From a virus (Duplodnaviria; Heunggongvirae; Uroviricota; Caudoviricetes): a DNA stretch of 64,000 bases. The notes under the pieces were generated by a model. The model worked only from the letters and a program-made list of their open reading frames with translations, did no database searches and was not told the origin of the DNA. Location: the IMG/VR virus record IMGVR_UViG_3300036790_000261, positions 24,725 through 88,724 of that record; one strand, given 5' to 3'. Position numbers and translations under genes: made by a program. How positions within the stretch are numbered: position 1 is the first letter of the stretch; every line of letters starts with the position of its first letter. Shown piece by piece: positions 59,350 to 59,610 of the stretch.

Positions 59350-59610
59350 TTGGGTTTCGTTTTGACCGTAGCCGCCGCGTGTCCGCTATGGGTTTCGTCA
59401 ATATACTGGCGGCGGCGTTCCGCTAATGAGCTTTGCAAATCCTGTGGCCGCCGCGATCGGTGAATTGCTTTCGTGCCCTGGATGGCGGCGGGCGTGGCCG
59501 AAATGGTTCTCGCAGTACGTGTGGCCGCCGCGTGCGTAGAATGGGCTTCGTTTTTACGCTGGCGGCGGCGTGTAACAGTTGGCTTTCGTCTCCGTGTTAG
59601 CCGCCGGGCG
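59350..59610. repeat. tandem repeat array D (7 units, cores alternate GGCCGCCGCG / GGCGGCGGCG)
   Basis: Spacers carry GGGTTTCGT / GCTTTCGT / GGTTCTCG motif. Confidence 0.7.

Follow-up and report, generated by a model that had tools for sequence, protein, structure and literature searches.

A probable dual-repeat TIGR array with alternating complementary edge repeats in a TasA–TasParB locus of an uncultured soil phage

Introduction

TIGR-Tas systems, which are RNA-guided and target DNA, were first described in 2025 (Faure et al., Science 2025, PMC12045711). TIGR stands for tandem interspaced guide RNA, and an array strings together short guide RNAs of two parts each. In the dual-repeat form of these arrays box D (UG) opens and box C (CCA) closes both the edge and the loop repeat, and the boxes may diverge but covary between edge and loop (Faure et al., PMC12045711). 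Edge repeats are conserved within a locus; typically the first edge of an array is truncated on its 5' side and the last on its 3' side, and a terminator comes after the last edge (Faure et al., PMC12045711). Processing in the middle of the edges yields 36-nt tigRNAs, the two ends of which are halves of different adjacent edges that form covarying Watson–Crick pairs (Faure et al., PMC12045711).

The gene tasA is sometimes found in an operon with the parB-like gene tasParB, with 10-nt dual-repeat arrays upstream, downstream and between the genes, and the TasParB motif DGFHR has been likened to the DGQHR motif of DndB (Faure et al., PMC12045711). TasParB is treated in a single source only in the literature searched. 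TasA and catalytically dead TasR from other systems are RNA-guided transcriptional repressors (Xu et al., bioRxiv 10.64898/2026.09.09.750476).

The present analysis concerns a phage-like stretch of DNA of 64,000 nucleotides and 66.7% G+C (the window), in which a short intergenic array with alternating G+C-rich cores, array D, had been noticed. The anatomy of the arrays, the covariation between their edges, the folds of the neighbouring Tas and ParB-like proteins and the layout of the operon are described here. They make it very probable that array D is a dual-repeat TIGR array of a TasA–TasParB system carried by an uncultured actinobacterial soil phage of about 120 kb. The locus is a new example of a class that has already been described; the alternating complementary edges, the several core types within one locus and the array in front of a DUF7873 gene may be new details.

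Results and discussion

Layout of array D

A repeat search of window positions 59300–59640 returned a period of 38 bp, exact 8-nt inverted matches of GCGGCGGC with GCCGCCGC at gaps of 30 nt, and TGGGTTTCGT-type motifs at a spacing of 38 bp in a single orientation. Dissection of the region into repeats and spacers gave the following features.

59333–59610, minus strand: probable TIGR array D, eight edge repeats and seven complete tigRNA units (repeat search, dissection, covariation)
59600–59610, minus strand: edge repeat 1, CGCCCGGCGGC, degenerate, without box C (TAA next), overlapping the last codons of the upstream gene
59561–59570, minus strand: edge repeat 2, CGCCGCCGCC, C form
59523–59532, minus strand: edge repeat 3, CGCGGCGGCC, G form
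59484–59494, minus strand: edge repeat 4, CGCCCGCCGCC, C form with one extra C
59446–59455, minus strand: edge repeat 5, CGCGGCGGCC, G form
59408–59417, minus strand: edge repeat 6, CGCCGCCGCC, C form
59371–59379, minus strand: edge repeat 7, CGCGGCGGC, G form
59333–59341, minus strand: edge repeat 8, CGCCGCCGC, 3'-truncated (no CCA), followed by the tasA ribosome-binding site
59351–59589, minus strand: seven loop repeats, consensus ACGRAACCCA; repeats 1–4 at 59580–59589, 59542–59551, 59504–59513 and 59465–59474, repeats 5–7 at 59427–59436, 59389–59398 and 59351–59360
59343–59598, minus strand: spacers, all mutually different; spacer A at 59590–59598, 59552–59559, 59514–59521, 59475–59482, 59437–59444, 59399–59406 and 59361–59369, spacer B at 59572–59579, 59534–59541, 59496–59503, 59457–59464, 59419–59426, 59381–59388 and 59343–59350

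The minus strand is the sense strand of the array and of all genes flanking it. On this strand each unit consists of an edge repeat (ACG, core, CCA), an 8-nt spacer, a loop repeat (ACGRAACCCA) and a second 8-nt spacer, with a total length of 38–40 nt; the edges with their flanks measure 12 nt and the loop repeats 10 nt. Eight G+C cores bound the seven complete units, and the C form GCCGCCGC and the G form GCGGCGGC alternate strictly along the array. None of 100 shuffles of the window contained a match to the two-unit pattern. At the 5' end the upstream gene (..PGG*, stop codon 59597–59599) shares its final codons and its stop with the first core. At the other end the last core is separated by 18 nt from the ATG at 59314, and the array continues directly from edge 8 into the ribosome-binding site of the tasA-like gene. 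The units are too low in identity for Tandem Repeats Finder, which did not report array D, and a scan for sigma-70 promoters and terminators found nothing relevant in the array and no terminator after it.

The original prediction had placed the array at 59350–59610, between two genes, the upstream one ending at 59597 and the downstream one starting at 59314. The location, the intergenic position and the count of seven units all agree with the coordinates above, but the left end has to be moved to 59333. Its statement that the cores come in two alternating, reverse-complementary forms was borne out by both the repeat search and the dissection. The term 'alternating orientation', in contrast, describes only the cores: the flanks ACG..CCA never flip, and the array is better regarded as having two complementary forms of edge. 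Similarly, the motif that had been called a spacer (GGGTTTCGT on the plus strand, ACGAAACCCA in the sense direction) does keep one orientation but is a second repeat, the loop repeat; it is flanked on each side by a variable stretch of 8 nt, and these two stretches are the real spacers.

Not all of the loop repeats are intact. Five of the seven carry both boxes; the loop at 59465–59474 (ACGAAAGCAA) has lost box C (CAA) and that at 59427–59436 (GCAAAGCTCA) has lost both. Loop repeats in the window are also more degenerate than those of related phages, few units matching ACGGAACCCA within two mismatches. Array D could therefore be read as a decaying and largely nonfunctional TIGR relic beside functional arrays C, B and A. 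This is unlikely given the perfect alternation of the edges (8/8), the exact spacing of the units and the presence of an array at this position in all six relatives.

A second reading, in which the repeats are a coding low-complexity extension at the N-terminus of the 58379 gene, is exceedingly improbable. The 38-nt period is not a multiple of three and could encode no repeated peptide, and the sequence upstream of the gene in relatives is an array and not a conserved protein. An identical 311-residue product that starts at ATG 59314 is recorded (P0001), homologues with 53–79% identity begin at the equivalent methionine, and a ribosome-binding site, AGAAGGAA, precedes it. The longer open reading frame (58379–59401) has a TTG start and is open across the first two units, which is the one point in favour of a coding extension; the earlier suspicion that its 29 additional N-terminal codons are not part of the protein is thus upheld, as is the start at 59314. 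Arrays of this kind escape Rfam and tandem-repeat finders and inflate the calls of neighbouring open reading frames, which is of consequence for annotation.

The Tas protein, the ParB-like protein and DUF7873

Three genes of the minus-strand operon lie next to arrays.

58379–59314, minus strand: tasA-like gene, 311 residues, coiled coil and Nop domain, no nuclease domain
56711–57751, minus strand: tasParB-like gene, 346 residues, ParB/Srx fold, invariant Asp101, His104 and Arg105 (WDGQHRF)
52862–53677, minus strand: DUF7873 gene with a TIGR array in front of it, as in four relatives

A search with a profile of 27 homologues of the 311-residue protein against 177,635 PDB sequences produced hits only with TasH (E value 1e-7) and TasR (E value 1e-5), and an SHxH..LR..W motif is common to the profile and both proteins. 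In the AF2 model (pLDDT 80.5) the coiled coil begins at residue 14, which leaves no room for an N-terminal nuclease domain and makes the protein TasA-like; a Pfam search of the protein likewise showed no match to a nuclease, either HNH or RuvC. Searches of Pfam, PHROGs and, with the single sequence, the PDB returned nothing except the PHROG label 'transposase', which reflects the relationship between Nop and IS110 and was not adopted.

The C-terminal tail that follows the SHVH..LR..W helix (GGQEPVFG...PGHYEA, compared with PVYG...RGRHR in relatives) is poorly conserved and is not covered by the residue-level alignment with TasH, and it has a phenylalanine where the relatives have a tyrosine. 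In SpTasH a Tyr/His dyad (Y289/H296) in the C-terminal loop is responsible for self-processing in dual-repeat systems; no confident counterpart of this dyad was found in the present protein.

The ParB-like protein was placed by fold search only, its profile having no sequence match in Pfam or the PDB.

A copy of the 311-residue protein with identical sequence lies on a contig of 122 kb that is listed with a metagenome-assembled genome of Trebonia sp., and about 40 relatives are known, many of them on soil-metagenome contigs of roughly 115–120 kb. The 122-kb contig was deposited in the Trebonia assembly yet has the gene content of a tailed phage, including a tape measure protein and tRNAs, and its relatives have genes for DNA polymerase A and a primase-helicase. 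The filing under Trebonia is either a binning artefact or a hint as to the host. A close relative was not found among deposited phages, and megablast of 57000–61000 against phage records gave no match.

Arrays lie in front of the DUF7873 genes at 52862–53677 (minus strand) in the window and, in related loci, at L011 15084–15839, L012 13568–14332, L015 15911–16675 and L016 13721–14455 (gene coordinates); in L015 a NUDIX gene lies between the array and the DUF7873 gene. DUF7873 may be an additional gene associated with the TIGR system, and no mention of it was found in the literature searched.

Arrays in the window and in related phages

The window holds four arrays, with at least 31 guides in one operon, and one solitary unit; the locus with its four arrays is a large natural example of its kind. 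Arrays A, B and C have the same architecture as array D, and each of them fills an intergenic gap of the same minus-strand operon.

57785–58371, minus strand: TIGR array C, about 16 edges, core GCCCGGC/GCCGGGC, between the tasA-like and ParB-like genes
55196–55435, minus strand: TIGR array B, seven units, core GCCCCGGC/GCCGGGGC
53768–53964, minus strand: TIGR array A, five units, core GCCCCGGC/GCCGGGGC, directly upstream of the DUF7873 gene
29820–29872, minus strand: solitary tigRNA-like stem-loop unit, stem GACGGGC/GCCCGTC, loop repeat ACGAAAACCA, two 8-nt spacers

The solitary unit is far from the tas locus and its stem includes a compensated A–T pair. It is located in a patch of low G+C content just beyond the stop of an HNH-endonuclease-like open reading frame (29233–29820, plus strand) and is antisense to the genes around it.

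Several other RNA features were observed in the window. A tRNA-Met (56442–56517, minus strand) lies within the operon that carries the TIGR arrays, with the ParB-like gene on one side and array B on the other, and a tRNA-Arg (18076–18149, plus strand) lies among structural genes. A sub-threshold Rfam match to the Y RNA-like family YrlA (52399–52504, minus strand; 36.3 bits against a gathering score of 69) adjoins tRNA-Gln (52302–52375) and tRNA-Thr (51829–51901) where the same minus-strand block ends. Between array B and a small gene (54488–54649), in DNA without annotation, lies a long and nearly perfect hairpin (approximately 54975–55055), each arm of which has about 23 nt; an Rfam match to mir-1294 at this place is spurious and is produced by the hairpin.

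In each of the six related loci arrays occupy the same positions relative to the genes, and all of them are in the sense orientation. Spacers turn over almost completely between these phages (at least six, with genomes of about 115–120 kb) while the repeats stay fixed. A distant homologue with 36% identity, in a different element, has no arrays. One guide in L014 (9811) is identical at 14 of 16 spacer positions to one in L015 (11323) (ATGATGGG and GAAGGAAC compared with ATGACGGT and GAAGGAAC). About 0.004 such matches would be expected by chance in the cross-phage comparisons, and the similarity of the two sequences points to shared descent or a shared target.

Wider searches were made with the repeat patterns. 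The two-unit A/B core pattern gave ten matches on viral contigs, all of which were judged to be chance matches inside coding DNA, and a scan with two loop repeats gave five stretches on four viral contigs. The same two-loop-repeat scan gave more than 100 genome matches, and those inspected (in Streptomyces and Actinoplanes) were coding repeats rather than arrays. Pairs of ACGGAACCCA with a spacing of approximately 36–39 nt are common in actinobacterial chromosomes (L024, L069, L100; Streptomyces, Actinoplanes), where they recur as the antisense of repetitive coding sequence, so that the loop-repeat pattern alone is not specific for arrays. Rfam with permissive thresholds showed no match on the arrays.

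Pairing between adjacent edges

The anatomy of the units was derived from 181 well-formed units from the window and six related phages and from 149 loop-anchored windows. The sense consensus of the 181 units is an edge of the form CG-core-CC, then A, N8, ACGRAACCCA, N8 and A. The loop repeat is near-invariant (C2 148/149, G3 148/149, C8 149/149, C9 142/149, A10 136/149), whereas neither N8 stretch has any base preference. Pairing among the variable segments, within the loop or across the core, is at the level of chance (2.78 observed, 2.90 expected). Edge and loop repeats are both framed by ACG..CCA, with (A)CG as box D and CCA as box C. Cores are always 30 nt apart and their own length varies from 6 to 12 nt, which accounts for the periods of 36, 37 or 38 nt.

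Adjacent cores are complementary whatever their sequence, and at least seven types of complementary core pair were found. These include GCCCGGC/GCCGGGC (window array C), GCCCCGGC/GCCGGGGC (window arrays A and B), GCCGCCGC/GCGGCGGC (array D and L011), GCGGGGC/GCCCCGC and GCCGGGCGGGGC/GCCCCGCCCGGC (both in L016), a 12-nt palindrome in consecutive units (L012) and the palindrome GCCGGC, which is the same in every unit and shows no alternation (L014). A covariation count over 133 units from seven related phages, compared with 500 shuffles, showed that 93.3% of adjacent-edge cells form a standard pair, compared with 73.0% after shuffling, and no shuffle reached the observed value. Cells changed on both sides numbered 138 (45.8 in shuffles) and the covariation score was 0.42 (0.11 in shuffles). 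Sliding the partner edge by 1–3 columns reduced the pairing to 20–50%.

A single DNA-binding protein could not read all of these cores, and the constraint acting on them is therefore base pairing in a single strand. On the evidence of this covariation, the alternation of the cores follows from the pairing of adjacent edge repeats: where an edge is not palindromic, pairing with both neighbours requires two forms that alternate and are mutually reverse complementary. The edges thus amount to a natural covariation experiment on the pairing of tigRNA ends. Mismatches in the edge helix read on the sense strand are more often G·T (14) than A·C (7), an excess that is only suggestive of a sense RNA.

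The same evidence bears on whether the units are sites in double-stranded DNA, centromere-like or iteron-like, for the ParB-like protein or another DNA-binding protein of the phage. Tandem units of about 40 bp with inverted elements are known at partition sites such as sopC of F, and the gene with the ParB/Srx fold adjoins array C. However, the cores vary from array to array within a genome and from phage to phage while neighbours remain complementary, the period follows the length of the core (36/37/38) and not helical phase, and every array lies on one strand, in the sense of the genes. The ParB-like protein itself has a DndB-type DGQHR motif and, as noted, no Pfam or PDB sequence match. This explanation is highly improbable.

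Folding of the whole of array D on either strand gave no extra stability relative to shuffles (z −0.6 and 0.0), and the minimum-energy fold of each of its double units is the 8-bp core helix. A chain of G+C hairpins might act only in cis, as a structured leader or intergenic spacer without guide function that stabilizes the operon mRNA, blocks Rho loading or sponges an RNA-binding protein. Such a role would fit the exact filling of the gaps from stop codon to ribosome-binding site, the 7–8-bp core stem that is the minimum-energy structure of double units (−17 to −25 kcal/mol) and the lack of matches in the target search of the window guides described below. It is nevertheless very unlikely, as it leaves unexplained the flanking Tas homologue, the box C/D framing with two unconstrained 8-nt segments at fixed positions, and the turnover of spacers between phages with constant repeats. 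An ECF-type promoter array, CsrA-like GGA sponges, hammerhead-like motifs, rut sites, replication-origin iterons and REP/BIME elements were also considered and were dropped because their spacing, composition or conservation did not fit.

In the 7-nt cores (GCCCGGC/GCCGGGC) the central base also alternates strictly. Pairing between half-edges does not require this, which hints at a full helix in the precursor. It is conceivable, although doubtful, that a full edge–edge helix of 6–12 bp in the precursor is read by Tas or an RNase and that DUF7873 is a third component of the TasA–TasParB system. If so, recognition of a precursor helix would be a mode of maturation between the dual-repeat and stem-loop classes in this phage family.

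Proposed mechanism

The locus has a Tas gene adjacent to the array, box D and box C in both repeats, and covarying pairing between adjacent edges, as expected of a TIGR-Tas system. As expected of the TasA–TasParB type, it has a Tas protein without HNH or RuvC, a DGxHR ParB-like gene in the operon, and arrays upstream of, between and downstream of these genes. The transcription, processing, DNA targeting and biological role of the array D system are proposed here by analogy with the described systems.

By homology, the minus strand would be transcribed as part of the operon. A dimer of the 311-residue Tas protein, through its coiled coil and Nop domain, would then grip each unit by box D, (A)CG, and box C, CCA, which stand at the start and end of the edge repeat and of the loop repeat. 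Cutting of the precursor inside the edge repeats would release RNAs of approximately 38 nt, the 5' and 3' ends of which would be halves of neighbouring edges paired with each other, and of the two 8-nt spacers of each tigRNA one could pair with each strand of a 16-bp DNA site. The system may act by RNA-guided binding of DNA or by repression, perhaps in concert with the DGQHR ParB-like protein. The absence of a nuclease domain from the Tas protein makes DNA binding or repression a likely outcome, and binding without cleavage is the likeliest output in view of the repressor activity of TasA and dead TasR in other systems.

A search for targets of the 31 window guides in two geometries, covering the window and six related loci, gave none at one mismatch or fewer, and matches with 2–3 mismatches were as frequent as with shuffled-pair controls; the true targets may lie outside the sequences covered. 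The locus provides material for questions about natural targets, the gain of spacers and the role of a nuclease-less TasA with a ParB-like partner.

Comparison with known systems

Several known elements share one or another property with array D. Like CRISPR loci, it combines tandem repeats and variable guides next to an effector gene, with rapid turnover of spacers between relatives. However, CRISPR has one repeat of 25–36 nt, spacers of similar size and cas genes, whereas each unit here combines two short repeats with two 8-nt spacers, and PHROGs and Pfam searches of the genes flanking the array gave no Cas match. Box C/D snoRNAs and IS110 bridge RNAs differ in that no K-turn/L7Ae, fibrillarin or DEDD recombinase domain is present here and in that the guides here form a tandem array. 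The BIME/REP elements of Escherichia coli also form extragenic arrays in which successive palindromic elements alternate, as in array D. In BIMEs the whole REP element flips, whereas in array D the core alone is complementary and the flanks and second repeat are polar; there is also no RAYT transposase here. The ToxI-like repeats of type III toxin–antitoxin systems are about 36 nt long and near-identical, and a terminator and the gene for an endoribonuclease toxin come after them. A ToxI-like reading was rejected: the units of array D share two short repeats only, no terminator follows and the downstream protein is a Nop-domain Tas homologue.

The stem-loop TIGR systems (PlTasA; CsTasR/PateTasR; Xu et al. 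10.64898/2026.09.09.750476; Guan et al. 10.64898/2026.08.11.744272) resemble the present arrays in that variable, complementary sequences flank the spacer pair. Their form is exactly that of the solitary unit at 29820–29872, the only unit of the window that fits it. In arrays A–D, in contrast, each arm is common to two units, there is no linker and the loop repeat is conserved, so that these arrays are dual-repeat in layout; a CUU processing motif was not seen in this comparison. Units of the stem-loop type with CCA boxes were seen by eye in the cultured cluster A mycobacteriophage Tripl3t (L144 1690–1990), in a 340-bp gap upstream of gp73, a homologue with 29% identity that is labelled hypothetical ('transposase' in relatives).

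The closest match is with the published dual-repeat TasA–TasParB systems (PMC12045711). Both have an edge–spacer–loop–spacer unit, repeats of about 10 nt with box D and box C in each, a nuclease-less Tas protein with a coiled coil and a Nop domain, a DGxHR ParB-like gene in the operon and the same array positions. The published typical array ends with a terminator, which does not follow array D. Box D is UG in published dual-repeat TIGR (TasR) and (A)CG here, and the published tigRNA is 36 nt long compared with a 38-nt unit with 8-nt spacers here. The main differences concern the edges. Published edges are a single sequence conserved within the locus, whereas the edge of array D has two alternating complementary forms and edges differ among the four arrays of this locus, and the potential edge–edge stem is 6–12 bp here compared with 2 bp in published dual-repeat TIGR.
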